Positions 33,066-63,103 of a DNA stretch of 64,000 nucleotides are shown one piece after another (position 1 is the stretch's first letter; the number at the start of each line of letters is the position of its first letter). The DNA comes from a virus. The stretch covers positions 64,001-128,000 of IMG/VR virus record IMGVR_UViG_3300045988_145100; one strand, written 5' to 3'. Both the position numbers and the translations under genes were made by a program. The notes under the pieces were generated by a model, which saw nothing but the letters and a program-made list of their open reading frames with translations, did not search any database and was not told where the DNA came from.

Positions 33066-33669
33066 TCTCGTATTTTAAAAAACGAAAAAATTTTTGGTGT
33101 GTGAATCGTTTTTTAAATTTCAAAAAATTTGGGGTGTGTGAATGTACCAGCTAAATATGATTTCATCGAATTAATTTTTCATTTTCCCATAATATATCCC
33201 CGGGTAAAAAGAGAAAATTTTTTTATTTTAAACTGATGACCACCTTTTATGTATGGTCTGTAGTTTTATCAAAAAATAATCAGCATACACTGAGACTGTA
33301 GTCCCGTACATTTTCAAATCATCGGCGCGCTTCCTCCCATAAAGCGCTCCGCATTTTACTATATTTCTAGTCATTTAAACATTTCAAATTCTAAAAGTCT
33401 AATCAAGTAGTCAAATAAAAATTCCCACAACTCATGCGTCTAAAAAACTAAACTATTCTCGGAGCTGACTAAAGCGGTGAACAAATGTTCGGTACTTCCA
33501 TCTTGGTGCATTCTCTTTTGTACAAATTGCACAAAAACATCTGTCAAACTTTGTGCATTTTGCATATTGCAATGAGTGCGCGGTGGGTGTACTATAATGG
33601 TGTCGCAAGGCAATGGCGGCAAAATAAATTAGATAGCCCTTGAGAAGCAAGGGCGGAAAGAGGTATATT

Positions 33670-34329: not shown

Positions 34330-34480
34330 CCGCACTCATCTAGTTTAGGAAAGACTAACTTGAGTTAGTCAAGCTTAATGCTTGTTAATTCAAACTAACT
34401 CTAGTTAGTCTTCCCGAAATCTAATTAGTTTAGTCTAACTATTGTTAGGCTTGACTAACTTTGGTTAGTTATTTTGAACG
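34330..34480. repeat. Cluster of palindromic iterons (A)CTAACT-N2-3-AGTTAG(T), locus 1
   Basis: At least four copies, e.g. actaacttgagttagt, actaactctagttagt, ctaactattgttag, actaactttggttagt. Confidence 0.55.
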
Positions 34481-34837
34481 GCACGCTTCCTCCCATAAAG
34501 CGTGTCGCATTTTGCCTATTTGACTAGTTATTTAAACTTTTCAAATCGACATTGAGTGTGACTACAAGACTAATCATATCCCATAATTGATGACTATTTG
34601 ACTACAAAAGTAAACACATCGTCACTATTGCTGACTAAAAAAGTAGTCACATCATCGTCTGGTGCATGTGTTTGGGTGCGTGAAAAGCCTTGAAAATAGG
34701 GCATAAAAAAATTTTTAAAAATTTTTGAAAAAAGTGTTGACATTGAAAACGGGGTATGATATTATAATGGTGCGGTGAACGAAAACCGTAAAATAAAATT
34801 GATAGTCTTTCAAGAGAGAGACAGAAAAGAGGTTACT

Positions 34838-35801: not shown

Positions 35802-35889
35802 CGGCAACCCTCCAAAATTCGATTTGCGTTCTCTAATTTTAATTAGCTACAAATATCTGTAATTAGCTGTATAAAATTAAAGTTAGAGA

Positions 35890-36062
35890 AGACGAATTGA
35901 AGTTCGTTTTATAAAAGTAAAGTTAGCAATTTTTAACAGTTGTTAATTCAAACTAACTCTAGTTAGATTAAGCTAATCCTTGTTAATTCAAACTAACTGT
36001 AGTTAGATTAAGCTAACTTAAGTTAGACTTATAAAACACTTGTTAGTTCAAACTAATTTAAG
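35890..36062. repeat. Cluster of palindromic iterons plus 35-bp direct repeats ttgttaattcaaactaactNtagttagattaagctaa, locus 2
   Basis: Two near-perfect 40-bp tandem copies and a third degenerate copy; the agttag/ctaact half-sites recur throughout. Confidence 0.55.
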
Positions 36063-36113
36063 TTAGAATAATCGCACCGGGCGGAGCACGTCCGGCCCCG
36101 CCGGAATTTGCCT

Positions 36114-36142
36114 ATTATACCACCTTTTAGGATTTTTGTCAA
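36114..36142 (-). promoter_or_regulatory. Leftward sigma70 consensus promoter (TTGACA-N17-TATAAT on the minus strand) abutting a GC hairpin terminator, module A
   Basis: Plus strand: attata at 36114-36119 and tgtcaa at 36137-36142, 17-nt spacer. Confidence 0.5.
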
Positions 36143-36347
36143 GGGAAAAAAGTTGACATATTGCACAAACATTATCCCAAAATCTTGTGCAGTTTTGACT
36201 ATTGCAATTTTGGGGCAATCTGCTATAATGATACTTGTAAGGGAGATAACAAATGAGATTGCTAAACAACCCGAACAAAAAAAAAGAAGTGCTTGACAAA
36301 TAGATACCTAAGTGATATAATAAGGGTATAGAAAGGAAGTAATGGTT

Positions 36348-36632
36348 ATGGGAACAGAGACTAAGCATGTACCAAGAAAAACAGAGACTAAGTATGTCTT
36401 AAAAGTAATGAGATACTTAGATTGCATGGGAACGCAAGTTGCTTATGTTATAGATGGTGTATTTGAAGATTGTCAGAGTGCAGTCCATGCCGCAGAGAGA
36501 CTACCACGCCGCCATGAACACAACAAGTTTGAAACTGGCTGTTGGAAGATAGTCAGAGCCACTATTCATTTAGATACTTTAGAAGTGGTAGAAAAGGAAA
36601 TAGCCGGAATGACATTATTTATGCTTGACTAG
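36348..36632 (+). CDS. Hypothetical protein
   Basis: Start ATG 36348, spaced 8 nt from SD gaaaggaag. Confidence 0.45.
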   Translation: MGTETKHVPRKTETKYVLKVMRYLDCMGTQVAYVIDGVFEDCQSAVHAAERLPRRHEHNKFETGCWKIVRATIHLDTLEVVEKEIAGMTLFMLD

Positions 36633-36744
36633 CGCAATAAAATGTGCTATCATATATATGTGGAAAGGAAAGGGAGCCATCAATCGACCACATTAAAAAA
36701 TAAAAATCAGCTTCAAATATTATATAAAAGCGAGGTATTGCATT

Positions 36745-37122
36745 ATGGAAAAGAAGATTACAAAGTTACAGGTTATCGAGGCTATGCTTGGAGAAGAGTT
36801 CGTACAGGACAATGAGATGTATAAGACTTATCTTATGCACGAAAAGGAACTCCTTGAGAAGAAGAAAGCTAAGGCTAAGGCTGGTTCTGATAAGAAAGCT
36901 AAGGCTAATGAAGCACTGGTTGAGAAGCTCAAGGTTGTCCTTGACGGTTTCAAGGGTACTTCTACTCAGATTATGCTCAAGGCTATGAAAGACTTCCCTG
37001 CTGATGAAGCGGTTCAGGCGCTTTCTAATCAGAAAGTAGTTGCACTTCTCAAGATTATGGTTGCCAATGGCACAGCAAAGAGAGAAGAGGAAAAGGACAA
37101 GGCAATCTTCTCACTTGTCTAA
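36745..37122 (+). CDS. Putative winged-helix DNA-binding protein, paralog A1
   Basis: 125 aa; N-terminus MEKKITKLQVIEAML is identical to the paralog at 41656. C-terminus ...QKVVALLKIMVANGTAKREEEKDKAIFSL has a wing-like pattern. Confidence 0.45.
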   Translation: MEKKITKLQVIEAMLGEEFVQDNEMYKTYLMHEKELLEKKKAKAKAGSDKKAKANEALVEKLKVVLDGFKGTSTQIMLKAMKDFPADEAVQALSNQKVVALLKIMVANGTAKREEEKDKAIFSLV

Positions 37123-37178
37123 TCTGCGGACGGGCGGTTGAAATACACCGCCCAATTTAAAAGAAAGAGGTATAGGGC

Positions 37179-37544
37179 ATGGATAGTAAAAAAGAAGCCT
37201 TAGAGAAGTTAGCTTTAAAGATTTTCAAGGAATGTGAAGCAGACGGAGAACCAGTCACAAAAGAAGAAGCTATGGAAATGGCGGAAATGGAAATCAAAGC
37301 TAAGGGAATAAAAAACTATGTTAAGGGTGCGGAAGCTGAAAAGAAACCGCGGAAGCCACGAGAAGTAAAACTCGATGATGAAAAGGTTGATTTTATCGGG
37401 TGTTTAAAAACTCTACTTGGAGGAATGGTACTTAATGGCAAGATTAGTAATGTTCAGATAGCCAATCCGCAGAAAGAGTTGACCTTTAACATCGGCGAGA
37501 ATGAATACTCACTGTCGCTGATAAAGCATAGAAAGAAAAAGTAG
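37179..37544 (+). CDS. Hypothetical Lys/Glu-rich protein, paralog B1
   Basis: 121 aa; C-terminal segment resembles the gene at 42081. Confidence 0.4.
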   Translation: MDSKKEALEKLALKIFKECEADGEPVTKEEAMEMAEMEIKAKGIKNYVKGAEAEKKPRKPREVKLDDEKVDFIGCLKTLLGGMVLNGKISNVQIANPQKELTFNIGENEYSLSLIKHRKKK

Positions 37545-37550
37545 CTGTAA

Positions 37551-37584
37551 GCTGATGACTAAACTAATAGTCATCAGCTTTTTA
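37551..37584 (+). terminator. Rho-independent terminator
   Basis: 11-bp stem gctgatgacta/tagtcatcagc followed by ttttt. Confidence 0.65.
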
Positions 37585-37588
37585 TGCT

Positions 37589-37632
37589 CAAAAAAGACCG
37601 CCCTGTGGGCGTCCGGCTTCGCCGGTATTTTG
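37589..37632. terminator. Bidirectional double-hairpin terminator, module B
   Basis: cgccc-tgt-gggcg and ccggc-ttc-gccgg, flanked by aaaaaag on the left and tatttt on the right. Confidence 0.6.
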
Positions 37633-37634
37633 AT

Positions 37635-37663
37635 ATTATATCACATTTTGGCATTTTTGTCAA
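37635..37663 (-). promoter_or_regulatory. Leftward sigma70 consensus promoter, module B
   Basis: Minus strand reads TTGACA-N17-TGa-TATAAT (plus strand attata 37635-37640, tgtcaa 37658-37663). Confidence 0.5.
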
Positions 37664-37742
37664 GAGAAAAATCAAAATAAAAAATTTTTTTATTTTCCCA
37701 AAACTGCTTGACATTTGCTTATAATCTGTTATAATTATAATT

Positions 37743-37780
37743 GTTCAAGGGAACAGATAACAAATAAGATTGAAAACAAG
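37743..37780 (+). promoter_or_regulatory. Conserved roughly 40-nt leader element GTTCAAGGGAACAGATAACAAATAAGATTGAAAACAAG, one of four copies
   Basis: Near-identical copies at about 36233-36270, 37743-37780, 39080-39128 and 40921-40966, each between an upstream TTGACA..TATAAT promoter and a downstream cTTGACAaa promoter. Confidence 0.4.
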
Positions 37781-37822
37781 TATCCTTGACAAAAACATAG
37801 AATAGAAATGAGGTATTCAATT

Positions 37823-38029
37823 ATGAAAGATGAATATGATGTAAGTATTAAGAAATTAGACCTTGAGGGCAATTATGATGATGAAGATAATCTGCCAACA
37901 TATTTACACATAACAGGAGAACAGTTAGTTCTTTTGAGATGGCTTGAGCGACATTGTTGGTTAGACCTTACAGAAGCAGATGTACCACCTGAACCAGTTG
38001 ATTTAGTAAGAGAAGTAAAAGAATATTAA
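37823..38029 (+). CDS. Small hypothetical protein
   Basis: Start ATG 37823 after SD tgaggt. Confidence 0.4.
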   Translation: MKDEYDVSIKKLDLEGNYDDEDNLPTYLHITGEQLVLLRWLERHCWLDLTEADVPPEPVDLVREVKEY

Positions 38030-38046
38030 GAAAAGAGGTATTAATT

Positions 38047-38517
38047 ATGAATTTATTAGTTTTATTTATTATTCTTAACATTGTAAATGTTATTATTCAG
38101 ACAGCAAAATCTTTAGTAACTGTCAAGTGTGGAAAAGGAGCTGCCGCCGCAATCAACGCATTAGCCTATGGTTTGTATACTATTGTAGTAATATACATGA
38201 TGTGCGACCTTCCGCTTCTCTTAAAGGCTTTCATAATAGCTATGTGTAATCTTATCGGAGTTTACATTGTAAAGCTGATTGAAGAAAAGAGTACAAGAGA
38301 TAAACTATGGAAAGTGGAAATGACAGTGAAGCCACATTATGCTAAAGAGTTAATGGAAACTTTAGACACTTTAAGGATTCCATATAGCTACATAGATATT
38401 GAGAAGTATATGTTATTCAATGTCTATTGTGAGACACAAAAGCAAAGCACTGTTGTAAAGGCTATTGTAGAAAAATATCATGCGAAGTATTTCGTCGCAG
38501 AGTGTAAAACATTATAA
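38047..38517 (+). CDS. Membrane protein with a soluble C-terminal domain
   Basis: Two or three predicted TM helices at the N-terminus, then a soluble C-terminal domain. Confidence 0.4.
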   Translation: MNLLVLFIILNIVNVIIQTAKSLVTVKCGKGAAAAINALAYGLYTIVVIYMMCDLPLLLKAFIIAMCNLIGVYIVKLIEEKSTRDKLWKVEMTVKPHYAKELMETLDTLRIPYSYIDIEKYMLFNVYCETQKQSTVVKAIVEKYHAKYFVAECKTL

Positions 38518-38555
38518 AGGATTGGGGCTATACAGCCCCAAGAAAGGGGTAAAAT

Positions 38556-38900
38556 ATGTTTAGAAATATCGTTATGTTTTGTTTAATGTTTCTTATTTGT
38601 TCATTCTTCGGTATAATAATAATTAGTAATATGAATACTAAAAAGAAATGGTTAAAAATATTAGTATTTATTATAACTACAAGTATAATTGCGGGTTTAT
38701 TCTCTTTTGGTCTTATACAAGAGGCAGATAGCGATATAAAAACATGGAATAATGGAATTTGTACAGAATGCGAAAATGGACATTATGAATTTGTTAGTGC
38801 TTCCAGTCGCGGAAGAGGTGTAGGAGGTACTAACTATTATTATTATAAATGTGATAGTTGCGGAAATGTAATAGAAGTAAAAAATTTGTATCAGAATTAG
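38556..38900 (+). CDS. Membrane protein with a C-terminal zinc ribbon
   Basis: Two TM segments; CTEC...(20)...CDSC. Confidence 0.4.
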   Translation: MFRNIVMFCLMFLICSFFGIIIISNMNTKKKWLKILVFIITTSIIAGLFSFGLIQEADSDIKTWNNGICTECENGHYEFVSASSRGRGVGGTNYYYYKCDSCGNVIEVKNLYQN

Positions 38901-38922
38901 TGCGGAAATCCGCACTTTTTCT
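38900..38922 (+). terminator. Rho-independent terminator
   Basis: gtgcgga-aa-tccgcac followed by ttttt. Confidence 0.6.
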
Positions 38923-38969
38923 TTACATTTTCACCGCGCTCTGCGCGACCGGCTTTGCCGGAATTTTGC

Positions 38970-38998
38970 ATTGTAGCATACTTTCGGTAATTTGTCAA
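38970..38998 (-). promoter_or_regulatory. Leftward sigma70 promoter, module C
   Basis: Minus strand TTGACA-N17-TACAAT. Confidence 0.45.
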
Positions 38999-39214
38999 GC
39001 GATTTTATGTACTAAAATAAAAACAATTTTTTCCTAAAAAATGCTTGACATTCTCTTGTAGTAGGTCTATAATTATAATTGTTCAAGGGGAACAGAGAAA
39101 AACAGATAACAACCGAGATTGAAAACAAGTTTTTTAAAAAACCACTTGACAAAATAATAAAAAGGGTGTTATAATAAACACATAGAAATCAAAGAAAAGA
39201 GGTATCATTTAGAA

Positions 39215-40186
39215 ATGAAAAAGAAGTATTATTTAACATTGGACACGGAGACTGCTACACTACCTTTTGCAAATGAGATTGCAAAGAATCCGAAACAGAA
39301 ACAGAAGATTGCTATTGCCAAGCCACTTGTTTATGATATAGGCTGGGTAATAACAGACAGATTGGGCAATAGAGTAAAGAGAGTTAATTATCTTATTCAG
39401 GAAACTTTCTTTGTACCGGCTATCTTTAATACAGCCTATTACCGCAATAAGCGCCCTATTTATGAACAGCTTCTCGCAGAGGGTAAGATAGGTGTTCGCA
39501 ACTGGAATGATATGGTTGCAGAATTGCTTGAAGATTTGGAAATGTGTACTTGCACATGTGCATACAATGCCGCATTTGATTACAAGAAAGCAATTCCTTT
39601 TACAGAACAGTACATCGCACACCTTTACGCACCAGGCTATCAGTACTGGGAAGATAAGCAGAGAATGAGTTGTGAGAAGATTGTTAGGGGATATAAAGAT
39701 GATAGAGAGAGTAATCCAGAGTATCTTAAACCAGTATTTAAGTTAAGAGATTTTGAGTTTCCTATCGTGGACTTATGGGCAGTAGCTTGTGAGAGATTAA
39801 TAAATATTGATAAGTACAGAAACTTCTGTCTTGACAATAGCTTAATCACTAACAGCGGAGAGTTCTTTAAATCTTCAGCAGAAACTAGCTTCCAGTATCT
39901 TAATAAGAGATACGATTTTACTGAGGACCATACCGCATTAAGTGATAGTGAGATAGAAGCTGATATTCTCACAAAGGCATTAAAGAAAGGCAAGATTGAA
40001 CCAATACTCAAGGCTTTTCCTTTCAGAGAACTGGGTACAACTTACGATTATGCTATTAACAAGAGACCGAAAGCCATTCCAGTAGTTATTGAAGCATTTA
40101 ACAACTATCTTAGCCAGCAGACAACGCATAATTCTTATGTAAGTAAGATTGAGGGCTTAATGTTAATGCTTGAGGGATATTGCTAA
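39215..40186 (+). CDS. DEDDh-family (DnaQ/RNase T-like) 3'-5' exonuclease
   Basis: Motif I TLDTETAT, motif II AYNAAFDY, motif III HTALSDSEIEADIL; 323 aa. Confidence 0.6.
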   Translation: MKKKYYLTLDTETATLPFANEIAKNPKQKQKIAIAKPLVYDIGWVITDRLGNRVKRVNYLIQETFFVPAIFNTAYYRNKRPIYEQLLAEGKIGVRNWNDMVAELLEDLEMCTCTCAYNAAFDYKKAIPFTEQYIAHLYAPGYQYWEDKQRMSCEKIVRGYKDDRESNPEYLKPVFKLRDFEFPIVDLWAVACERLINIDKYRNFCLDNSLITNSGEFFKSSAETSFQYLNKRYDFTEDHTALSDSEIEADILTKALKKGKIEPILKAFPFRELGTTYDYAINKRPKAIPVVIEAFNNYLSQQTTHNSYVSKIEGLMLMLEGYC

Positions 40187-40242
40187 TAATAAGTTGGGGC
40201 TGAAAAGCCCCGACAATCTAAAAAAGAAAAGAGGTATATAAT

Positions 40243-40692
40243 ATGAATAAAATTTTAGTTTTTGATATGGACGGAACAATAGCAGATTTCTATGGAGTTG
40301 AGGGTTGGCTTGAAGATTTAAAGAATTGTAGCACTCGCCCTTATGAGATAGCACAGCCAGTTTATGAGCCTACAATGTTAAACGATTTGATTAATACACT
40401 CAAGATTAATGGTTGGAAGATTGTTATTGTAAGTTGGTTAAGCAAGGAAAGCAATAAAAAATATGACGCGGCTGTTCGCAGTGCTAAGAGAGCATGGCTT
40501 GAGCAGATAGGTTTCCCTTATGATGAAGTACATCTTGTCAAGTATGGCACAACGAAAGCCAATTGTACTAGACATTTAGGCGGATTTCAGATATTAGTTG
40601 ATGATAATGAAAAGGTAAGACGCGGTTGGTCGCAGGGTTGCACGATAGACGCGAGACAGGACATTATTGAAAGACTTAAAGATTTAATATAA
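40243..40692 (+). CDS. HAD-superfamily 5'(3')-deoxyribonucleotidase-like phosphatase
   Basis: N-terminal motif VFDMDGTIADF (DxDGT), with a later K and DD motifs; 149 aa. Resembles the NT5C/YjjG class and T5 dmp-type dNMPases. Confidence 0.55.
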   Translation: MNKILVFDMDGTIADFYGVEGWLEDLKNCSTRPYEIAQPVYEPTMLNDLINTLKINGWKIVIVSWLSKESNKKYDAAVRSAKRAWLEQIGFPYDEVHLVKYGTTKANCTRHLGGFQILVDDNEKVRRGWSQGCTIDARQDIIERLKDLI

Positions 40693-40796
40693 TAGTCAGT
40701 TGCGGGTAGGCAGAAATGCCTACCTTTTTAGTTATGACTAAAATTTTCGTCAGAAAATCATCGCCTGGAAGGCGTCCGGCTTCGCCGGTATTTACC

Positions 40797-40825
40797 ATTA
40801 TACCATACTTTTGATATTTTGTCAA
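40797..40825 (-). promoter_or_regulatory. Leftward sigma70 consensus promoter, module D
   Basis: Minus strand TTGACA-N17-TATAAT, 10 bp from the ccggc-ttc-gccgg hairpin. Confidence 0.5.
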
Positions 40826-41158
40826 GCGAAATCCGCACATAAAACTGCACAAATATTTTCCCATAACTTTGTGCATATTGTCTATTGCAATATCTGCCTC
40901 AAAGTATTATACTATTCAATGTAAGGAACAGAGAAAAGCAGATAACAAATGAGATTGAAAACAAAGTTTTTCAGAAAGTTCTTGACAAATAAGTTACAAA
41001 ATGTTATAATAACAATGTAGAAAGGAGTTGACAATTATAAAAAAATATGTTATCATATAAATATAGAAAGGGGTTGAGTTTTATGATTGTTACAATTGTT
41101 TTGGTAATTATTTGTTTCGGCGCATGTTCGCCAAGAGTTTAGAAAGTGAGGTAGCTGT

Positions 41159-41299: not shown

Positions 41300-41350
41300 T
41301 AATATGATAGTAGATGTAAATACAACAATTGCCGCAAGAGGTATGATAAT

Positions 41351-41655: not shown

Positions 41656-42036
41656 ATGGAAAAGAAGATTACTAAATTACAGGTTATTGAAGCAATGTTA
41701 AATGAGGAATTTATTCAGGATAATGAGATGTATAAGACATATCTCACACATGAGAAAGAGTTGCTCCTTAACAAGAGGAATAAGAACAGCAAGGATAATG
41801 AGAAGAAGTCTGCTGCGAATAAGGCTCTGACAGAGAAGCTGTTGGAAGTAATGAAAGATGTAAGCGGAACTGCTACCCAGTTGACTTTCACACTGATGAA
41901 AGTTTACCCAGATGACGCAGATGTTATGGCATTAACTAATCAGAAAGTTACTTATCTCTTAAAGGAACTCGCGCAGGCTGGTACTATCAAGAGAGAAGAA
42001 ATTAAGGGTAAGCCTATCTACTCTTTAATTGAATAA
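41656..42036 (+). CDS. Putative winged-helix DNA-binding protein, paralog A2
   Basis: Shares its N-terminus and overall architecture with the gene at 36745. Confidence 0.45.
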   Translation: MEKKITKLQVIEAMLNEEFIQDNEMYKTYLTHEKELLLNKRNKNSKDNEKKSAANKALTEKLLEVMKDVSGTATQLTFTLMKVYPDDADVMALTNQKVTYLLKELAQAGTIKREEIKGKPIYSLIE

Positions 42037-56999: not shown

Positions 57000-57073
57000 G
57001 GTCCTTTAGCTCAGCTGGTTAGAGCGCTCGTCTCATAAGCGAATGGTCCTGGGTTCGAGTCCCAGAAGGTCCA
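57000..57073 (+). tRNA. tRNA with anticodon CAT (Met / fMet / Ile-lysidine class)
   Basis: Hand-folded cloverleaf: acceptor ggtcctt/aaggtcc (one T-T mismatch), D-arm gctc-agctggtta-gagc, anticodon loop ctCATaa, T-arm ctggg-ttcgagt-cccag. Confidence 0.6.
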
Positions 57074-57582
57074 TTTAAGAATTTATCAGTTCTTAATGCG
57101 TGCATACAGTATTAGATATGTTGACTTGCTTATCAAATAGTTATAAGTCGTGAGTTACTGCGTTAAAGATGACAAGTTGTATGATAATAGTTTTCTTAAA
57201 GCTTTTATTAGGGCGGCAACCTGCCGATAACAAATAGCCATTTTTTAAAAATTTTTGGACAAAGTAATTTAAGTATTATAAAATATTTTTTATATAAAAT
57301 ACAAACTTGAAAAATATAAAAAAATATGATATAATATTTATATAAAGAAAAGAGGTAAGTTACTACCCATGCTTCTCCTCTATAAAAAAGAAGGTATGCA
57401 GGGTGAGGTTGACGGAGAGCGACTAAGGCTGCGGTTTACCCAAGAGAATAAAATCTCCTACTAGCGAAATCTAGTTAAAACTACCAAATTACTCATAGTC
57501 GTATAACAGTAATTTGATTTTTATAAAAATTTATGTTATAATATTTATATAAGATAAAGAAAAAAATATTTTTCCTCTCTCA

Positions 57583-57653
57583 TTCAAAGGTAGGATGCAC
57601 GCCTGTTAAGCGTAGAATCTGGGTTCGAATCCCAGGGGAGGAGCTTCCAGTTG
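57583..57653 (+). tRNA. tRNA-Asn (GTT)
   Basis: Acceptor tcctctc/gggagga, anticodon stem (c)acgc/gcgt(a) with loop ctGTTaa, T-arm ctggg-ttcgaat-cccag. Confidence 0.55.
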
Positions 57654-57915
57654 CGGAACTGGTTAAATAAAACCGAGTAGTCAGTTGTCAGTAACCTTGT
57701 TAAAACTGTCAATGTTCATATCCGAAGAGATTTCAGTGTTCGGTAGAGGTTATGAATGAAGAATGTAGTGAGTTCGATTCTTGCTTGTCCGCCGTAGTTG
57801 GACACATGGTGGCATTTGAAGTATTCCTTGTTGGTTGATTAAATGAAACATGTTGCCGCATGTGGATTAAAATACCAAAATACCTTGACTATAATGACGG
57901 CAATCATTATAGAAA

Positions 57916-57989
57916 TGCTTGTTAGTTTAAATTAATTGGAAAAACACTCCGGGAAGGGGAGATGTTGGGTTCGAATCCCACACAAGTGA
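57916..57989 (+). pseudogene. Degenerate tRNA-like element: canonical T-arm but aberrant D and anticodon arms
   Basis: ttggg-ttcgaat-cccac T-arm and a pairable acceptor, but a 13-nt D-loop, a 4-bp anticodon stem and loop gggaagg with purines at positions 32/33. Confidence 0.25.
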
Positions 57990-58264
57990 TTTTGTCAAAG
58001 CAAAGACATTAAAACTCGCTGATTATTAGGTGTGAATAATAGTCGTTGGCTACATGCGTAAGAAAAATAGTTCGAGAGAGCTATCGGAGCCGTAGAGGAG
58101 AAAGATATCGGCATATGGATAACACACTCCTAGATGCGAGAAATCAAATTAAAGGAAGATGGTATATGCAGCTAATAGAGAGAGTAAAGAGCGCTAGCTT
58201 GTAGCGAAACAACCTGCCAAAAGTAAGTTTATTGGTTTATCTTACATTGGTGAAAAACCTTTTA

Positions 58265-58335
58265 ATTTTATAATCTGGTTTAGTTTAATGGTAGAACCCT
58301 GGCTTTGTAACCCAGTAACGAGAGTTCGACTCTCT
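58265..58335 (+). tRNA. tRNA-Thr (TGT)
   Basis: Acceptor tctggtt/aaccaga, D-arm gttt-aatggta-gaac, anticodon stem ctggc/cccag (C31-C39 mismatch) with loop ttTGTaa, T-arm gagag-ttcgact-ctctc. Confidence 0.55.
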
Positions 58336-58373
58336 CAACCAGAATTAGTACTTTAGTACTAGAAAGGAATGTT

Positions 58374-58652
58374 ATGAAAATATGGCTTGATGATTTAAGA
58401 AAAGCACCTTGCGGATATGTGTGGTGTCATTCAGTTAATGAGACTATATTATTTATTGAGAAGAATAAAAGTGATATAGAATTAATTGATTTAGACCATG
58501 ATTTAGGTGATTTCGCTAAAGATGGCGGCGATGCTATTTATTTAATGGATTATTTAATAGAAAAGAAGTTATTCTATAAGCTAAATTTTCATACTGCAAA
58601 TCCAGTAGGCTTAGCAAATATGTTAAGATTGTATGATAGATACTGGGTATAA
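58374..58652 (+). CDS. Small hypothetical protein embedded in the tRNA array
   Basis: 92-aa ORF (MKIWLDDLRKAPCGYVWCH...) with SD aaaggaatgtt, lying between tRNA-Thr and tRNA-Ala. Confidence 0.4.
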   Translation: MKIWLDDLRKAPCGYVWCHSVNETILFIEKNKSDIELIDLDHDLGDFAKDGGDAIYLMDYLIEKKLFYKLNFHTANPVGLANMLRLYDRYWV

Positions 58653-58725
58653 GGGGCTGTAGCTCAGTTGGGAGAGCATTCGTTTTGCAAGCGAAAGGTC
58701 GTGGGTTCGAACCCCACTAGCTCCA
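58653..58725 (+). tRNA. tRNA-Ala (TGC)
   Basis: Acceptor ggggctg/tagctcc (two G-U pairs), D-arm gctc-agttggga-gagc, anticodon stem ttcgt/gcgaa with loop ttTGCaa, T-arm gtggg-ttcgaac-cccac. Confidence 0.6.
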
Positions 58726-58735
58726 TTAATCATAT

Positions 58736-58764
58736 TTGATTTTTATAAAAAAATATGATATAAT
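58736..58764 (+). promoter_or_regulatory. Consensus promoter copy inside the tRNA array
   Basis: ttgatt-N17-TGa-tataat. Confidence 0.6.
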
Positions 58765-58929
58765 ATTTATATAAGATATGAAAAAAGAAAAAATGTGAAA
58801 AAGATTTTGTAGTAGCATTAAAAATGACAATATACTAATCAGAAAATCTTTATGCGGAAACGCTCTGTAATTAGTATTTCAAGTTTAAATTAGATTGTTT
58901 GGCGTTAACAATAAAATAAAACGCCACTT

Positions 58930-59010
58930 GCGGGATTGGTGAAATTGGCAAACACATACGATTTAAGCTCGTACGCTTTAAGCTTGTGAGTTCGAGTCTC
59001 ACATCCCGCA
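58930..59010 (+). tRNA. tRNA-Leu (TAA), type II
   Basis: Acceptor gcgggat/atcccgc, TG-gtg-aaattggcaaa-cac D-arm as in bacterial tRNA-Leu, anticodon stem tacga/tcgta with loop ttTAAgc, 12-nt variable arm, T-arm gtgag-ttcgagt-ctcac. Confidence 0.65.
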
Positions 59011-59135
59011 CTAACCTAAGAAATTAAATTGTGGTATAAAGACATGATAACTAAGTCTTGTAAGAGATTATTTTATCTTTTATAAAAGTTTTCTTCTCTA
59101 CTAGTGAGTAACAAGCTTTTGAAGTTATCTTATAT

Positions 59136-59205
59136 GTATCATTCGTATAATGGTTTGTACGCTGGGTATTCCCTAGAAGAGTGAGTTCGAATCTTACATG
59201 ATACT
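59136..59205 (+). pseudogene. tRNA-like pseudogene with a 5-nt anticodon loop
   Basis: Perfect acceptor gtatcat/atgatac, normal D-arm and T-arm (gtgag-ttcgaat-cttac), but an anticodon arm ctggg-tattc-cctag. Total length 70 nt. Confidence 0.35.
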
Positions 59206-59313
59206 TTTTAGGCACTAACAGCGAATTTGATGATTCTAACAAACAAAAATATTTGTATGTAAAATGCTAAAGGCTTTATATCCTTTAATTAATCAATAGT
59301 GTCTAGTTTTTCT

Positions 59314-59385
59314 TGAGAGATAATATAATGGTTAGTATGCCTCTCTGATACGGAGGTCATCCGAGTTCAACTCTCGGTCTCTCAA
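59314..59385 (+). tRNA. tRNA-Ile (GAT)
   Basis: Acceptor tgagaga/tctctca, anticodon stem cctct/ggagg with loop ctGATac, T-arm ccgag-ttcaact-ctcgg. Confidence 0.6.
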
Positions 59386-59586
59386 TTTAACACTAGTCTG
59401 AATGGCGTGTCGCGGCGATAGGTCAGACGAAGATTATAGGAAAGTCTCCTGGCACATAATGAGATACTGCCTATATCAGACAGAAGCGAACTGTCTTTAA
59501 ATCAAATGATTAACTCTTACAGCAAAATATGTAGACAACACTATTTTTAAATAGTTTTCATAATACATACCCGAGTTTAGAAATAT

Positions 59587-59615
59587 TTGATTTTTATAAA
59601 AAAATATGTTATAAT
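59587..59615 (+). promoter_or_regulatory. Consensus promoter copy inside the tRNA array
   Basis: ttgatt-N17-TGt-tataat. Confidence 0.6.
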
Positions 59616-59765
59616 ATTTATATAAGATATGGGTTTATAAGTGGCTAGTAACTTCCGTCTAACTTACCCAGACATAGAGTTACCTTTTATCAAGAAAGTA
59701 AATCTTGGTCGTGCGACTACGAGAAGTTACTCTTTGCCAACTAGAGTATAATATAAGTTGGATTT

Positions 59766-59839
59766 GGCTTCTTCTTCTAATCGGTTTAGGAATCTAGGTT
59801 CTCATCCTAGGAATGTCAGTTCGAATCTGGCAGAAGTCA
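59766..59839 (+). tRNA. tRNA with anticodon CTC (Glu by the genetic code); identity is tentative
   Basis: Acceptor ggcttct/agaagtc, anticodon stem ctagg/cctag (perfect) with loop ttCTCat, T-arm gtcag-ttcgaat-ctggc. Confidence 0.45.
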
Positions 59840-59903
59840 TTCAGATGCGAAGTTTTGATAAGTTACCTCTTTTCTATATGCTAGGATTTTCTCCTAGCAG
59901 CTT

Positions 59904-59975
59904 GGCTCTTTCGTCTAGCGGTTAGGACAGCGCCCTTTCACGGCGCAGACCCGAGTTCGAATCTCGGAAGAGTCA
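59904..59975 (+). tRNA. tRNA-Glu (TTC)
   Basis: Acceptor ggctctt/aagagtc, D-arm gtct-agcggtta-ggac, anticodon stem gcgcc/ggcgc with loop ctTTCac, T-arm ccgag-ttcgaat-ctcgg. Matches the classic bacterial tRNA-Glu pattern. Confidence 0.65.
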
Positions 59976-60031
59976 TTTAATCAAAAATTTTTAAATTTTT
60001 GATATAAAGGTTTTGGTGGATAATTACCACC

Positions 60032-60066
60032 CTCCTTTACTTAAAGATATACTATAAAGTAAGGAG
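60032..60066 (+). promoter_or_regulatory. RNA hairpin that sequesters the ribosome-binding site of the GIY-YIG endonuclease gene
   Basis: 5' arm c032-t042 (ctcctttactt) pairs with 3' arm a057-g066 (aagtaaggag). The SD aaggag at 60061-60066 lies entirely inside the 3' arm, 6 nt before ATG 60073. Confidence 0.5.
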
Positions 60067-60072
60067 TATTTA

Positions 60073-60699
60073 ATGAGTTATATTTATAAAATTGTTAATT
60101 CTATTAACAATAAAATGTATATTGGTAAAACATCATTTCCAATAGAAAAAAGATTTCAAGAACATATTTCAGCTAGTAAAAAAGAAAGATGTGAAAAGCG
60201 TCCTTTATATGATGCAATGAATAAATATGGAATAGAAAATTTTTTCATAGAACAAATTGAAGAAGTTGAAAATGATGATATTGCTTGTCAAAGAGAACAA
60301 TACTGGATAAAGAAATTAAGAACATATGTAGGCTATGAAGATTGCGTAGGTTATAATGCTACTTTAGGTGGTGACTCAAGAAGATTATATGATTATGAAG
60401 AAATTTCTAAAAAGTATATTGAGTTACAATCAGTTAAAGAAACTTGTAAATTCTTCAATTGCGATAAGTTAGTTGTTAATTTAGCTTGTAAAGAAAATAA
60501 TGTAACAATTCTTGATGGTAGGCAAAGAAAACAAGTTAGGAGATACAATATAGATAAGACTGAATATAAAGATTATCCTTCAATAACAGAAGCTGCTAAA
60601 GATATCCCTAATAAACCAATAGAAACAGCAAGAAAAAATATCTCAAGAGCAATAAATAAAGGTTTAGTTGCTTATGGATATTATTGGAAAAGAATTTAG
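60073..60699 (+). CDS. GIY-YIG homing endonuclease (SegB-like, free-standing, inside the tRNA array)
   Basis: N-terminal YIYKIVNSINNKMYIGKT...R...EH...N GIY-YIG catalytic motifs; C-terminal basic DNA-binding region (AYGYYWKRI, NUMOD-like); 208 aa. Confidence 0.75.
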   Translation: MSYIYKIVNSINNKMYIGKTSFPIEKRFQEHISASKKERCEKRPLYDAMNKYGIENFFIEQIEEVENDDIACQREQYWIKKLRTYVGYEDCVGYNATLGGDSRRLYDYEEISKKYIELQSVKETCKFFNCDKLVVNLACKENNVTILDGRQRKQVRRYNIDKTEYKDYPSITEAAKDIPNKPIETARKNISRAINKGLVAYGYYWKRI

Positions 60700-60702
60700 T
60701 GC

Positions 60703-60776
60703 CGCGGGTTGGAGAAGTCAGAATCTCGTCGGACTCATTATCCGAAGAACGCTGGGGCAGAGCCAGCACCCGCTAC
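60703..60776 (+). pseudogene. Possible degenerate tRNA-like remnant (CAT-type anticodon loop) immediately after the endonuclease gene
   Basis: gcgggt...acccgc acceptor-like helix, anticodon-like arm tcgga-ctCATta-tccga, atypical T-loop ggcagag. Confidence 0.2.
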
Positions 60777-60901
60777 TTGGTTTTTCTGAATTTCTTCCTT
60801 TAAAAATTCAGTTCATATAAATTTCCTTTCTGTTAGCGGATTGGTTGACAATAATGTCAACCTTACCCGCTTGATATAAACAAAAGGAAATAAAAATCTA
60901 T

Positions 60902-60930
60902 TTGATATTATATAAAATTTATGATATAAT
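60902..60930 (+). promoter_or_regulatory. Consensus promoter copy
   Basis: ttgata-N17-TGa-tataat. Confidence 0.6.
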
Positions 60931-60973
60931 ATATATGTAACAAAGAAAAGGAAAAGAAAAGGAGATTTATATT

Positions 60974-61294
60974 ATGGCAGGACAGAATAAGAGAGTATCA
61001 AGAGTATCAAATGGTGGTAGAACAAAGGCTCATAAAGCTCAGGAAGCTAAGCGTCAGGCAAAGTTTGCTGCAAAGCGTGAAGCTGGAAAAGCTTATGTAT
61101 ATAAGGCAAATCCTTACAAGCCTTACACAAAGAAGTGGTGGATTGAAAAGGACAAGAGGGCGGAGAAAGCTAAGTCATCAAGAGTTCCTTATGCAATCGT
61201 AACATCAATCTTTGCTAAGCTTGATAATAAGATTGCTAAAGAGAAAGAAGCTGCAGCTAAGGCAAAAGCTAAGAAGGCTGCGGCAACCGCTTAA
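60974..61294 (+). CDS. Highly basic Lys/Ala-rich protein (histone H1-like / nucleic-acid-binding) inside the tRNA array
   Basis: 106 aa: ...AKRQAKFAAKREAGKAYVYKANPYKPYTKKWW...AKEKEAAAKAKAKKAAATA; SD aaaaggagat. Confidence 0.45.
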   Translation: MAGQNKRVSRVSNGGRTKAHKAQEAKRQAKFAAKREAGKAYVYKANPYKPYTKKWWIEKDKRAEKAKSSRVPYAIVTSIFAKLDNKIAKEKEAAAKAKAKKAAATA

Positions 61295-61306
61295 TAAAAT
61301 AAGCGT

Positions 61307-61380
61307 GCTAGAATAGCTCAAATGGTTAGAGCAGGCGTTTCATAAGCGTCAGGTTGCTAGTTCGATTCTAGCTTCTAGTA
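61307..61380 (+). tRNA. tRNA with anticodon CAT, second copy (Met / fMet / Ile-lysidine class)
   Basis: Acceptor gctagaa/ttctagt (G1-U72), D-arm gctc-aaatggtta-gagc, anticodon stem ggcgt/gcgtc with loop ttCATaa, T-arm gctag-ttcgatt-ctagc. Confidence 0.55.
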
Positions 61381-61385
61381 TTTAT

Positions 61386-61469
61386 AGGGGAGCGCCGAAG
61401 TTGGAGAGTCGGGGCGGTCTGTAAAACCGTTGCCTTCGGGCTGAGTGAGTTCGAATCTCACCTCCCCTA
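61386..61469 (+). tRNA. tRNA-Tyr (GTA), type II
   Basis: Acceptor aggggag/ctcccct, anticodon stem gcggt/accgt with loop ctGTAaa, long variable arm tgccttcgggc, T-arm gtgag-ttcgaat-ctcac. Confidence 0.6.
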
Positions 61470-61908
61470 CTAGGTTGGAGATTACCTAAAAATCTTCTGT
61501 TAAGCTTTTCTTAATTTTTTATATAAGGATTTTATAATACCTAATATAAAAGATTATTGTTTTCCATAAAAGTTAATACTGAAAACAAAGATGTTTTGTA
61601 CAAACACCATATGTAAGTAGAGCTTCCGAGCTGCGATACTTCATTAAAGCCCATACCGCAATATTACTTTTAATAGATAGAAAATAATGCTCAAATGTAT
61701 TTTTTTGGTTTTAAAAGAGTTTATTAATGCGGGCTTTGTAATTAAACATTAGTAAACAAAATATAGTCCATACAGCAAATGTTCAAGAATATCAGATGAT
61801 TTTATTACTTATTAATTCTTACAGCTGTAAATTACACTGATGACTTATTAAATACTAAAACTTAGGACTTAGAAAATAATAGTTTTAATATAATGATAAG
61901 TCATTTTT

Positions 61909-61980
61909 GCTTCTATCGTTCATCGGTTAGGACAATGTCCTGTCACGGCATAGAGGTGGGTCCGACTCCCACTAGAAGCG
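61909..61980 (+). tRNA. tRNA-Asp (GTC)
   Basis: Acceptor gcttcta/tagaagc, D-arm gttc-atcggtta-ggac, anticodon stem atgtc/ggcat with loop ctGTCac, T-arm gtggg-tccgact-cccac (atypical C55). Confidence 0.55.
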
Positions 61981-62435
61981 TTCACCATAGTTTAAGTATA
62001 ATGAGTTTTAATTAGTAAGTACATGACGATGTTACTGAAGATTAATACATAGTTATACATCAAATTAATTCTTGACTATAGCAGGGGTGATTTGTAGAAC
62101 AGTCTGCCAGTAGCAGAAAGATTCAGTAGAAGTCTGAGGGTGACTTTAATGTTTTTGTGCTAAGCACAGTATTCTAATTTTACTAAACAAAATTTTAAGT
62201 ACAAGAATTGGTTTAGTGCTGCAGTATTTATCAGTATTGTAGCTATGCTGTTGATGATACAGCCGAGGTTAAAGAGCGTTAGTGACCAGTGGTGGTGTTA
62301 TGCTTTGTAATGAAGCATGTTAAGCTAATGACACACGGTTAGGTTTGAGATGTAGAGAGCAAGTCTCAGAAGGCAAGACCTATCAGAATAACAAGCATCT
62401 TAGGGTTGCAACCTCATGATAGGAAATAGCTAAAT

Positions 62436-62507
62436 GCAGGTGTAGTACATCGGCTAGTGCGCCAGACTTCCAATCTGGATAGACGGGTTCGATTCCCGTT
62501 ACCTGCT
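62436..62507 (+). tRNA. tRNA-Gly (TCC)
   Basis: Acceptor gcaggtg/tacctgc, anticodon stem ccaga/tctgg with loop ctTCCaa, T-arm acggg-ttcgatt-cccgt. Confidence 0.6.
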
Positions 62508-62622
62508 TTATCGTAGGGGTTTGGAATCCCCTAAATGAGGCAACCGCCGCGATAATACAAAATTCTTGCAAGAAACAAAATATTATACAATAGAATTCTT
62601 ATTGGTTGTAGGTTCTATTGTT

Positions 62623-62696
62623 TGTGGTGTAGCTCAATCAGGTAGAGCGTTAGCGGCTGGAGCTAAAGGTTAGAGGTTCAAATCCTTTCACCACAA
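62623..62696 (+). tRNA. tRNA-like gene with a non-canonical anticodon loop ggCTGga (G at position 33); possibly Gln-CTG, or a pseudo-tRNA
   Basis: Perfect acceptor tgtggtg/caccaca, D-arm gctc-aatcaggta-gagc, perfect 5-bp anticodon stem ttagc/gctaa, T-arm agagg-ttcaaat-ccttt. Confidence 0.35.
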
Positions 62697-62809
62697 TTCT
62701 GTAGTCGGCATTGGTAAACATAGGAAACTAGATGTCGATGGTTATGAATAAGGATAAAAGTTGCAACAAAACTTGTTCAGATTATGCGGAATTGCAACAC
62801 CGCATTTTC

Positions 62810-62883
62810 GGGGAATTAGCTCATATGTGGCAGAGCACTCGGTTGAAGCCCGAGGCGGAGAGGCTCGATACCTCTACTCCCCA
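62810..62883 (+). tRNA. tRNA-Phe (GAA)
   Basis: Acceptor ggggaat/actcccc (one A-C mismatch), D-arm gctc-atatgtggca-gagc, perfect anticodon stem ctcgg/ccgag with loop ttGAAgc, T-arm agagg-ctcgata-cctct (atypical T-loop). Confidence 0.5.
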
Positions 62884-63029
62884 TTTTATTAAAGGCTTAA
62901 ACAGCAATTCAGTGTAAGTACTGGTTGAGAAAAACAAATATTAAAATATTAAAGTTATTAAATAACGAGCCTAGCATAATAGATTATTTCTTAATTTTAA
63001 TATAAAGTAGCTTTATAGTTACTCTTATT

Positions 63030-63103
63030 GCGCCTATAGCTCAGTTGGCTAGAGCATCAAACTTTTAATTTGAGGGTCCCGAGTTCGAGTCTCGGTGGGC
63101 GTA
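63030..63103 (+). tRNA. tRNA-Lys (TTT)
   Basis: Acceptor gcgccta/tgggcgt, D-arm gctc-agttggcta-gagc, anticodon stem tcaaa/tttga with loop ctTTTaa, T-arm ccgag-ttcgagt-ctcgg. Confidence 0.6.

Follow-up and report, generated by a model that had tools for sequence, protein, structure and literature searches.

Repeated early-transcription modules of a large uncultured phage carry a conserved leader stem-loop

The window, the whole 64,000-nucleotide stretch analysed here, contains in the early region of a large uncultured phage four repeated control cassettes (modules A to D, at 36.07, 37.6, 38.93 and 40.76 kb). Each combines GC-rich hairpins, a minus-strand (reverse) promoter, a forward promoter (P1), a conserved element and usually a second forward promoter (P2). 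A sequence-only reading had described this recurring architecture, and all of the elements it named were found where it had placed them. Transcription start sites were throughout predicted from sequence, as the position 7 nt past the -10. The features are as follows.

Module A
36073..36104, plus strand: GC-rich hairpin, one long imperfect stem including CCGGCCCCGCCGG, then AATTTG
36114..36142, minus strand: reverse promoter, TTGACA-17-TGgTATAAT, 12/12 consensus
36162..36191, no strand assigned: palindrome just upstream of the P1 -35 (TTGCAA, 36202), then TATTGCAAT
36202..36229, plus strand: P1, TTGCAA-16-TATAAT, 10/12, weaker TTGCAA type
36229..36280, plus strand: leader stem-loop, diverged, GGG/CCC stem, loop AGAUAACAAAUGAGAUUGCUAAACAA
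36293..36321, plus strand: P2, consensus, before the gene starting at 36342
Module B
37549..37580, plus strand: own terminator of the upstream gene, 13-bp stem and T-run
37599..37625, no strand assigned: double hairpin, CGCCCTGTGGGCG-T-CCGGCTTCGCCGG, plus side TATTTT, minus side GTCTTTTTT
37635..37663, minus strand: reverse promoter, 12/12 consensus
37708..37735, plus strand: P1, consensus, TTGACA-16-TATAAT
37740..37791, plus strand: leader stem-loop, UCAAGGGA/UCCUUGA stem
Module C
38899..38916, plus strand: own terminator of the upstream gene
38935..38961, plus strand: double hairpin, CGCGCTCTGCGCG-A-CCGGCTTTGCCGG, then AATTTT, no minus-side T-run
38970..38998, minus strand: reverse promoter, TTGACA-17-TGcTACAAT, 11/12 consensus
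39045..39073, plus strand: P1, consensus
39089..39140, plus strand: leader stem-loop, GAAAAAC/GUUUUUU stem and outer helix
39146..39175, plus strand: P2, consensus, 18-nt spacer, before the gene starting at 39215
Module D
40704..40725, plus strand: own terminator of the upstream gene
40762..40788, plus strand: double hairpin, CGCCTGGAAGGCG-T-CCGGCTTCGCCGG, then TATTTA, marginal minus-side T-run (AUGAUUUUCU)
40797..40825, minus strand: reverse promoter, 12/12 consensus
40846..40875, no strand assigned: operator-like palindrome, TGCACAA-N16-TTGTGCA
40885..40913, plus strand: P1, TTGCAA-17-TATACT, 9/12, weaker TTGCAA type
40925..40976, plus strand: leader stem-loop, GAAAAGC/GUUUUUC stem and outer helix
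40982..41010, plus strand: P2, consensus
41028..41056, plus strand: third promoter (P3), TATCAT
Outside the modules
33528..33557, no strand assigned: third palindrome, before the TTGCAA-type promoter of the gene at 33670

The sequence CCGGC-NNN-GCCGG occurs once in each module (at 36092, 37613, 38949 and 40776; chance expectation 0.04). To its left, at a distance of 1 nt, modules B, C and D have a second hairpin (CGNNN-NNN-NNNCG), which varies in sequence among the copies while keeping its complementarity; the module A hairpin folds as a single longer one. A fifth CCGGC-NNN-GCCGG copy, at 18336, is unrelated. The plus-side T-run is present in 4/4 modules (weak in A), and a good minus-side T-run was found in module B only (GGUCUUUUUU). 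The hairpins had been read as bidirectional terminators; this holds for module B, by its sequence the sole clearly bidirectional terminator among the four, but not for A and C, which have no minus-side T-run, and D is marginal. The module A hairpin is a predicted weak plus-strand terminator and the 5' hairpin of the predicted reverse RNA.

The reverse promoters are of the type TTGACA-17-TGnTATAAT/TACAAT, with the extended -10 TG in 4/4. The proposed leftward consensus promoters were present in all four modules and are conserved in divergent relatives, but the -10 and the hairpin are 8-9 nt apart, not the 10-30 bp suggested. In 11 distinct modules from divergent contigs, TTGACA-17/18-TGnTATAAT and a GC hairpin are separated by 6-11 nt; neither the hairpins nor the spacers are related in sequence from one module to another, and the T-run is plus-sided in 10/11. 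In this comparison, what is conserved in divergent relatives is the pairing of reverse promoter and hairpin, not the hairpin sequence.

The first interpretation was that reverse promoter and double hairpin form a gene for a functional, terminator-embedded sRNA or decoy of 40-60 nt. The consensus promoters kept in divergent phages agree with this, and so do the predicted module B reverse RNA (about 40 nt, ending at the U-tract) and one L016/L019 module with a proper minus-side terminator (RNA of about 40-50 nt). However, the minus-side U-tract is missing or poor in A, C, D and most relatives, where the plus side is the conserved one. As a good minus-side terminator was found only in B, "bidirectional" and "tiny sRNA" apply to that module alone, and only B would yield a discrete RNA of about 40 nt. 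Hairpin sequences and loops differ between lineages, so that no sequence-specific target is apparent and a sequence-specific family of tiny sRNAs is unlikely; we give the sRNA-gene interpretation a low probability. The lambda oop RNA, a short constitutive antisense RNA starting beyond the cII 3' end, is similar in that a constitutive promoter past a gene end fires back toward the gene and makes a short hairpin-containing RNA. By contrast, the predicted module B RNA would stop short of the upstream gene, the reverse RNAs of the other modules have no defined end, and the reverse promoter here is fused to the sense-transcript terminator, in four copies.

The palindrome TGCACAA-N16-TTGTGCA is present in three copies (36162, 40846 and 33528; 0 expected by chance) and overlies the weak P1 promoters. 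At 33528..33557 it is accompanied by no hairpin, reverse promoter or leader element. The recurring operator-like palindrome was therefore real, but the spacing first given for it produced no match, the true spacer being N16. It may be a repressor operator, and P1 would then be under regulation in modules A and D as well as at 33.5 kb. Module B has a decayed P2, whose TTGACA is the 3' arm of the leader stem.

The conserved element consists of three near-identical copies (0 expected by chance) and the diverged copy of module A, and a covariance model run on the 64 kb returned exactly these four. It is a stem-loop in which a variable, covarying stem closes a conserved loop of 19-24 nt, GAUAACAA-NNG-AGAUUG-NWAAC. 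The apical loop has two GAWAACAA-like heptads around NNGAGAUU, forming a direct repeat (GATAACAA ... GAWAACAA), and the bases after its UUG vary. The loop is nearly invariant across divergent phages, although this partly reflects retrieval, because the loci were fetched by patterns derived from the loop; only the secondarily found copies are unbiased (GAGAAC and GATAAC variants, weak L028 matches and a GAAACC variant in L006).

Folding with the loop held unpaired gave a mean of -3.67 kcal/mol for cognate flanks vs. -1.7 for swapped flanks (0/2000 permutations reached the observed value), and -6.69 vs. -3.13 (sd 0.57; 0/5000) in 15 non-redundant representatives. In a covariance-model alignment of 77 copies (45 distinct), which is itself fitted to the structure, 72.4% of cells pair compared to 50.0% after shuffling, and the covariation score is 0.501 vs. 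0.181 shuffled (0/500), with slid controls at or below 0.219. Changes on both sides were observed in 7/7 stem pairs, and at least 10 unrelated stem sequences occur. The conserved leader of about 40 nt described earlier is consequently conserved, but as a hairpin whose apical loop is conserved and not as a linear element, and it precedes ORF-free regions as well. Covariation and conservation outside this phage, proposed as the test of the leader, were both found.

These data bear on two explanations that we consider very improbable. In one, the modules are merely recent duplicates of promoter cassettes whose shared sequence does nothing beyond promoters and terminators. The four copies are clearly paralogous, and close relatives gain and lose cassettes, so that related genomes differ by cassettes with module copies at their bounds: L001 has a 1.25-kb insert flanked by module copies (window 36076-36209 duplicated), and L074 has a replacement. 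Nevertheless, loop and reverse promoter are conserved where the flanks of the lineages cannot be aligned, the stem changes are compensatory, and the differing stems argue against recent horizontal transfer of one cassette. The other explanation, to which we attach as little weight, is that the leader works as a double-stranded DNA site, bound by a phage protein as an operator, activator site or iteron, as the direct repeat in the loop and the position between two promoters could suggest. However, the leader lies at a variable distance from the -10 of P1 and also from the -35 of P2 (8-41 nt), which favours action at the RNA level, and flanks that change sequence but keep complementarity are nothing that a duplex DNA site needs.

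The leader recurs in at least 10 divergent lineages of uncultured phage contigs, each time right after a strong promoter. It is located upstream of mRNAs and also of long ORF-free regions, it is carried by tandem [promoter-element]n-promoter-gene arrays, and in two lineages (groups X and Y) it comes after the promoter that fires rightwards in a divergent cI/cro-like region. Rfam has no family matching the stem-loop, and none of the isolate phages and plasmids searched has the motif. By these comparisons, the conserved hairpin is a previously undescribed, new leader RNA motif common to many related phages, and it probably binds a conserved factor. A search for a binding partner identified none; a host factor is likelier than a phage factor because no phage protein co-occurs in the sampled loci.

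One possible role is in processive antitermination, as with nut or put: by loading a factor onto RNA polymerase, or by altering the enzyme itself, the leader would let P1 transcripts extend past the many downstream terminators and through long untranslated regions. The leader is at the 5' end of the predicted strongest early transcripts, like lambda nut (boxA/boxB) and HK022 put it is structured RNA that closely follows early promoters, and in groups X and Y it adjoins the cI/cro-like switch, at the place of nutR and putR in lambdoid phages. Long ORF-free regions follow it, and the near-invariant loop suggests a conserved host target, which its conserved single-stranded bases could contact. 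Two heptads, UAACAA and UUGAAAAC, presumably resemble boxA of E. coli and Firmicutes in its 3' half, a likeness drawn in part from GTTCTTTGAAAACT, a conserved primer site in the 16S-23S spacer. The core of that site, TTCTTTGAAAAC, appears in mycoplasma-detection papers (PMC3019172, PMC4312986). A Firmicutes precedent for a leader hairpin exists in LoaP (PMC12691694), but that hairpin has a UNCG tetraloop, unlike the leader loop. Moreover, the U-rich boxA core is missing, the bases after UUG vary, and a single large-loop hairpin differs from the 15-nt boxB or the two-stem put. The leader is followed by P2, the last promoter ahead of the gene and normally itself without the element, and does not lie downstream of all promoters; tandem arrays would be redundant for a nut site, each cassette has its own promoters and terminator stack, and 45 early ORFs yielded no NusG/KOW-like or N-like protein. 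Antitermination is, in our judgement, unlikely but deserves some weight.

We are more doubtful that the leader mimics a host immune or regulatory RNA and titrates its partner, as a solitary CRISPR-repeat-like unit (RNA anti-CRISPR), a type III toxin-antitoxin pseudo-antitoxin or a sponge for an A-rich-binding protein such as Hfq. It would suit a mimic to be the predicted earliest and strongest RNA, multi-copy, in tandem promoter-element units and independent of translation, and the loop presumably recalls the ...AUGAG..AUUGAAAC 3' halves of some type I-B/III repeats. However, a scan of 185,579 species, each represented by one genome, gave single occurrences only, and neither these nor the metagenomes, phages and plasmids had a CRISPR-like array carrying the motif. 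The "handle" bases after UUG vary, CRISPR repeats have no flanking covarying stem, and the arrangement of the units is not that of head-to-tail repeats ahead of a toxin gene.

In the window and four divergent lineages, the hairpin base is 1-3 nt from the predicted P1 start. Stabilising stem-loops at the 5' terminus exist in Firmicutes and in phage SP82 early mRNAs, and a stem-loop 1-3 nt from the 5' end has the geometry that blocks 5'-end-dependent decay in Bacillus. Both divergent transcripts of a module are likewise predicted to begin with a stem-loop within 1-3 nt, but a stabiliser does not need the conserved 20-nt loop, and the leader element also precedes ORF-free regions.

The explanation towards which we lean, with modest confidence, is that a large tailed phage of Firmicutes type has in these modules insulated cassettes for early transcription. 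They would be functional analogues of the PeSL (promoter-early stem-loop) cassettes known from T4-like phages (Arbiol et al. 2010, PMC2839356; Comeau et al. 2014, PMC4122927), with the new leader RNA motif in addition. Both consist of a repeated intergenic stem-loop terminator and a strong early promoter of host sigma-70 type, are clustered among small genes of unknown function and bound indels between close relatives. PeSLs were, however, defined in T4-like myoviruses of Gram-negative hosts, whereas this phage has a Firmicutes-type host and head-gene affinities of large siphoviruses; the reverse promoter abutting the terminator and the structured leader RNA are found only in the present modules, which add tandem forward promoters and, in some copies, an operator.

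In such a cassette, the GC hairpins and plus-side T-run would stop the preceding rightward unit, and a back-to-back pair of host sigma-A promoters would follow. The leftward promoter adjoins the terminator, and therefore its RNA would begin with a hairpin; judging from this geometry, it may reinforce insulation by head-on RNA polymerase occupancy at the terminator and may also make an RNA that is capped by a hairpin and antisense to upstream transcripts at their 3' ends, but it would encode no sequence-specific sRNA. The rightward P1 RNA would start with the conserved stem-loop, whose loop is a putative binding site for a conserved trans-acting factor, and P2, where present, would drive the gene without the leader element. 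Behind the leader hairpin there is neither a terminator nor a processing site that would delimit a discrete decoy RNA. P1 may exist largely to make an abundant and very early 5' hairpin RNA, which would be either a decoy or sponge for the factor or a tag that brings it to P1 transcripts.

The window has a G+C content of 32%. Up to 32.6 kb its minus strand carries head, portal and terminase genes together with two giant ORFs; small plus-strand genes follow from 32.7 kb onward, and 17 tRNA genes lie in 57-64 kb. The nearest portal proteins were found in an uncultured human-gut phage (62% identity) and in large Enterococcus, Bacillus and Clostridioides phages (25-38%), and from the latter affinity we conclude that the genome is not T4-like. 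A Firmicutes host is suggested by the ribosome-binding sites and by sigma-70-type promoters with a TG extension. At the DNA level, megablast of the region found no counterpart among isolate phages. Four repeated intergenic modules sit 3.5-8.5 kb into the rightward early region. Each contains a GC hairpin built on CCGGC-NNN-GCCGG, a minus-strand promoter facing it (reverse promoter), plus-strand promoters (numbered P1 to P3 in order, P3 in module D only) and a conserved stem-loop after P1 (the element, or leader hairpin):

36.07 kb, module A: one longer hairpin, weak plus-side T-run, no minus-side U-tract; minus-strand reverse promoter; plus-strand P1 of the weaker TTGCAA type preceded by a palindrome, element, consensus P2
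37.6 kb, module B: double hairpin, plus-side T-run, good minus-side U-tract (GGUCUUUUUU); minus-strand reverse promoter; plus-strand consensus P1, element, decayed P2
38.93 kb, module C: double hairpin, plus-side T-run, no minus-side U-tract; minus-strand reverse promoter (TACAAT form); plus-strand consensus P1, element, consensus P2
40.76 kb, module D: double hairpin, plus-side T-run, marginal minus-side U-tract; minus-strand reverse promoter; plus-strand P1 of the weaker TTGCAA type preceded by a palindrome, element, consensus P2 and an extra third promoter

All of the elements listed in the sequence-only reading were present, including the leftward consensus promoter next to each GC hairpin. 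CCGGC-NNN-GCCGG occurred four times in the region (0.04 expected by chance). The second hairpin of modules B, C and D lies 1 nt to the left of the first and varies in sequence between copies, with complementarity kept. In these three modules the upstream gene's own terminator precedes the double hairpin by 20-40 nt, and each boundary is therefore a terminator stack. The hairpins had been described as bidirectional terminators; a GC stem with a U-tract on each side was found in module B alone, so that the description holds there, is marginal in D and fails in A and C. Eight promoters in 36-41 kb matched the consensus 12/12, and sites with one mismatch or fewer numbered 21 window-wide (1.6 expected). 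The element was present in four copies in the 64 kb, with no others, and P2 (and P3) lay downstream of it in modules A, C and D and in most relatives. The operator-like palindrome also exists, as TGCACAA-N16-TTGTGCA, while the spacing first proposed for it returned no match. The third of its three copies, at 33528, stands ahead of another TTGCAA promoter, and the palindrome probably serves the weak P1 promoters as a repressor operator. A distinct operator family was seen in L066, one of the element-bearing contigs of uncultured phages (L numbers) and a member of group Y; groups X and Y are lineages with a cI/cro-like switch. There, two promoters in tandem precede the element, with AAACGA-N3-TCGTTT palindromes located in their spacers (reverse-complement strand, ~285-420 of the printed segment).

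The genes flanked by the modules had no Pfam match, and Pfam and PHROGs scans of the early proteins gave no RNA-binding, NusG-like or N-like candidate. Paralogous lysine-rich genes (125-126 aa; 36745-37122 and 41656-42036; 72% nucleotide identity over 147 nt) each form the second unit after a module and have homologues in the L006 and L012 lineages. Short CTAACT-NN-AGTTAG palindromes, in ~20-40-nt units, form arrays at 34340-34470 and 35860-36070; the second extends up to the hairpin of module A and is therefore in the path of that module's reverse promoter. The arrays may represent an origin, a partition site or iterons. A repeated segment, CTTCCTCCCATAAAGCG...GCATTTT...CTAGT.ATTTAAAC, occupies two long intergenic gaps (33320-33380 and 34470-34540), and its minus-strand reading resembles a ribosome-binding site with a very short ORF. 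Promoters of the form TTGATA-17-TATAAT are interspersed with the 17 tRNA genes (57000-63940). A scan without ORF assignment detected a cyclic-phosphate-processing receiver domain and a PNKP-type phosphatase domain among the early ORFs (32.7-61.3 kb); together with the tRNA genes, these domains suggest a tRNA repair or replacement toolkit.

In the window, the reverse promoter reads TTGACA-17-TGnTATAAT on the minus strand, 8-9 nt after each CCGGC-NNN-GCCGG copy. The same arrangement, TTGACA-17/18-TGnTATAAT at 6-11 nt from a GC hairpin, was found in 11 distinct modules of divergent contigs (the window type plus L006, L014, L023, L033, L012, L016 and L019). The T-run was on the plus side in 10 of the 11 and on the minus side in one L016/L019 module. 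Hairpin and spacer sequences were unrelated among them, indicating that the conserved unit is a strong leftward promoter into a GC hairpin and not a particular RNA sequence. In position, the reverse promoter corresponds to the leftward promoter of the group X and Y switch regions. Most plausibly, polymerase from this promoter would occupy the terminator, whose U-tract is short, head-on and so strengthen insulation; a further product may be a hairpin-capped RNA antisense to upstream 3' ends. The tiny hairpin sRNA proposed for all four modules is retained as a prediction for module B only, which should give a discrete ~40-nt RNA; modules A and C lack the minus-side U-tract.

The conserved leader was confirmed, and its distribution was wider than had been recognised. 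Its core was present in the close relatives L001, L002 and L004 (86-96% identical), and pattern scans with loop-derived patterns also fetched it from many contigs whose flanks cannot be aligned to the window. Genuine copies always lay 10-30 nt 3' of a strong promoter. The flanks of the loop differed in sequence and kept their complementarity (GGG/CCC, AAGGGA/UCCUU, GAAAAGC/GUUUUUC, GGAAU/AUUCC, AGAGG/CCUCU, GAUAAG/CUUAUC, GUCAAGA/UCUUGAC, AAAACAG/CUGUUUU); in groups X and Y the stems were imperfect and longer, at ~20 bp. Folded with the loop unpaired, cognate flanks had a mean energy of -3.67 kcal/mol vs. -1.7 for swapped flanks (0/2000 permutations); 15 non-redundant representatives gave -6.69 vs. 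-3.13 (sd 0.57; 0/5000). A covariance model recovered 77 copies in 49 sources. In its alignment 72.4% of cells paired (50.0% when shuffled), the covariation score was 0.501 (0.181 shuffled, 0/500; slid registers at most 0.219) and double changes occurred in 7/7 stem pairs. This alignment was fitted to the model; the energy tests are independent of it. The leader is a single extended hairpin; if transcription starts 7 nt past the -10, its base lies 1-3 nt from the 5' end in B, C, D, L006, L033, L016 and L012. Its apical loop has the form (A)GAUAACAA-NNG-AGAUUG-NWAAC(AA), two GAWAACAA-like heptads around a short spacer. Since the loci were fetched by loop-derived patterns, loop invariance is partly an ascertainment effect; secondary copies of the same loci tolerate GAGAAC, GAUAAC, GCAAAC and GUAAAC.

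At the Rfam gathering score only tRNAs matched in the window, and at E values up to 5 nothing exceeded noise in 35.8-41.2 kb. A 32-nt element query against isolate phages and plasmids gave chance or coding matches only, two intergenic plasmid matches being rejected on inspection. All-against-all ORF clustering of 42 element-bearing sources (41 loci and the window) revealed no protein common to all lineages. A loop mini-ORF (AUG AGA UUG AAA AC.) was rejected: its "start" is the most variable position (AUG, GUG, ACG, CCG, AUA) and every nucleotide of its "codons" is invariant. Mimicry of the tRNA-Phe anticodon loop (UUGAAAA) or of a CRISPR handle (AUUGAAAC) was rejected or weakened, the bases after UUG being variable. 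A LoaP-type hairpin was rejected, since that one has a UNCG tetraloop. An RNA anti-CRISPR, or solitary repeat unit, is another candidate, which would closely resemble a CRISPR repeat arrayed in host genomes; strict patterns placed the element in no CRISPR-like array of the genome, metagenome, phage and plasmid collections. Type III antitoxins (ToxI-like) consist of head-to-tail 34-45-nt repeats followed by an endoribonuclease toxin gene, whereas the element is single per promoter, or in copies 99-118 nt apart with promoters between, and no toxin gene was found downstream. A 323-aa gene, presumably for a DEDD exonuclease given its LDTETA and YNAAFD motifs, has in its 5' coding region a 44-nt stretch (39270-39313) with 73% identity to the leader of module A (36250-36293; CAAATGAGATTGC...). 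This match recurs in relatives and may be a recombination scar or chance.

The genomic attachments of the element differ. Protein genes follow it in the window. In groups X and Y a single copy directly follows the rightward promoter of a divergent HTH gene pair (cI-like and cro-like), and is itself followed by a ~200-nt leader. In L026, L086, L006 and L014 it stands ahead of long ORF-free regions with T-arm-like pieces, not accounted for by ARAGORN or Rfam. These regions (L086, ~1680-2300, and the other three) extend for >600 nt downstream of P1-element-P2 and contain GGTTCGA/GGTTCAATTCC pieces and repeated GAGGGCTACC, with no tRNA call; they may be an undescribed large non-coding RNA, ROOL and GOLLD being rejected for want of an Rfam match. 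A skipping-rope RNA (RF02924, 76.6 bits) was detected in the group X phage L056 (2866-2946), 2.5 kb 3' of the element. Tandem promoter-element units were also found: L046 has three and L007 at least two, the latter at the contig end (118-nt period), and L016 has two, 99 nt apart. These arrays end with a final promoter without an element. Spacing to both promoters varies (8-41 nt to P2), which argues against a duplex-DNA site.

The loop would bind a conserved trans-acting factor. Since transcripts from P2 would normally lack the element and tandem units raise its copy number, we prefer the view that it forms an abundant early 5' hairpin RNA serving as decoy or recruitment tag. The main rival is antitermination of the nut/put type by the leader hairpin, on account of the switch-region position of the element and the long untranslated regions downstream of it. 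However, a nut/put-type site should follow the last promoter, and P2/P3 lie 3' of the element. The boxA consensus has a U-rich core (GCUCUUUAACAA, or GUUCUUUGAAAAC in Firmicutes); the comparison also drew on a conserved primer site, GTTCTTTGAAAACT, in the 16S-23S spacer. The core TTCTTTGAAAAC of that primer site is documented in work on mycoplasma detection (PMC3019172, PMC4312986). The element resembles boxA only in the 3' half (UAACAA, UUGAAAAC); it has GAGAUU in place of the U-rich core, and after UUG its bases are variable. The HK022 put RNA comprises two stem-loops with one unpaired base between them, ~70 nt in all, whereas the leader is one hairpin; the two-hairpin, 1-nt layout appears only in the predicted reverse RNA, where sequence is not conserved. 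Among the early proteins, no NusG/N-like candidate was found either.

For the modules as a whole, we favour insulated early cassettes, which would agree with their mosaicism. In L001 module copies lie on either side of a 1.25-kb insert and window 36076-36209 is duplicated, and in L074 a cassette is replaced; some other breakpoints in relatives lie at ribosome-binding sites instead of modules. A second recombination hot spot, at 41336-41340, was observed in L004, L011, L015 and L020, where inserts or replacements start in a conserved ribosome-binding-site region, not in a module. The closest known systems are the promoter-early stem-loop (PeSL) cassettes of T4-like phages. These couple a terminator stem-loop to a sigma-70 early promoter, border ORFans and drive shuffling (PMC2839356, PMC4122927). 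The modules share the strong sigma-70-type early promoter within a repeated intergenic motif and the adjacent GC hairpin with a plus-side T-run (weak in A), a predicted terminator of upstream transcription; they likewise flank small genes of unknown function and bound the indels of L001 and L074. PeSLs differ in belonging to T4-like myovirus genomes, which the window genome is not; they are also associated with mini-circle formation.

The modules are real and more general than the sequence-only reading knew; the sequences show how they are built, that the leader covaries as an RNA would, and that hairpin motif and reverse promoter are each conserved. They are best described as a new version of the promoter-terminator cassette, one that carries a structured RNA motif which is itself new. 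A bolder reading, which we consider rather unlikely, is a new class of phage non-coding RNA, the first to be made and produced in bulk from the consensus promoters, whose near-invariant loop captures a conserved host protein, with the reverse promoter and terminator as a new polymerase-roadblock insulator. If the captured protein were a defence or RNA-decay factor, the RNA would be a decoy; if RNA polymerase or a Nus-type factor, it would be a new factor-independent antiterminator.

Almost nothing is annotated in the early regions of large uncultured phages of gut and rumen type, and the combination of terminator, divergent promoter pair and leader hairpin provides a reusable landmark for immediate-early units and cassette boundaries. 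The structured RNA motif is new, well supported and accompanied by a covariance model. Should its loop bind a host factor, the hairpin would serve Firmicutes phages either as an RNA tool for takeover or anti-defence or as a new signal for antitermination; to our knowledge, few such RNAs are known in this group. The reverse promoter, conserved and pointed at a terminator, also offers a simple and testable design for an insulator.
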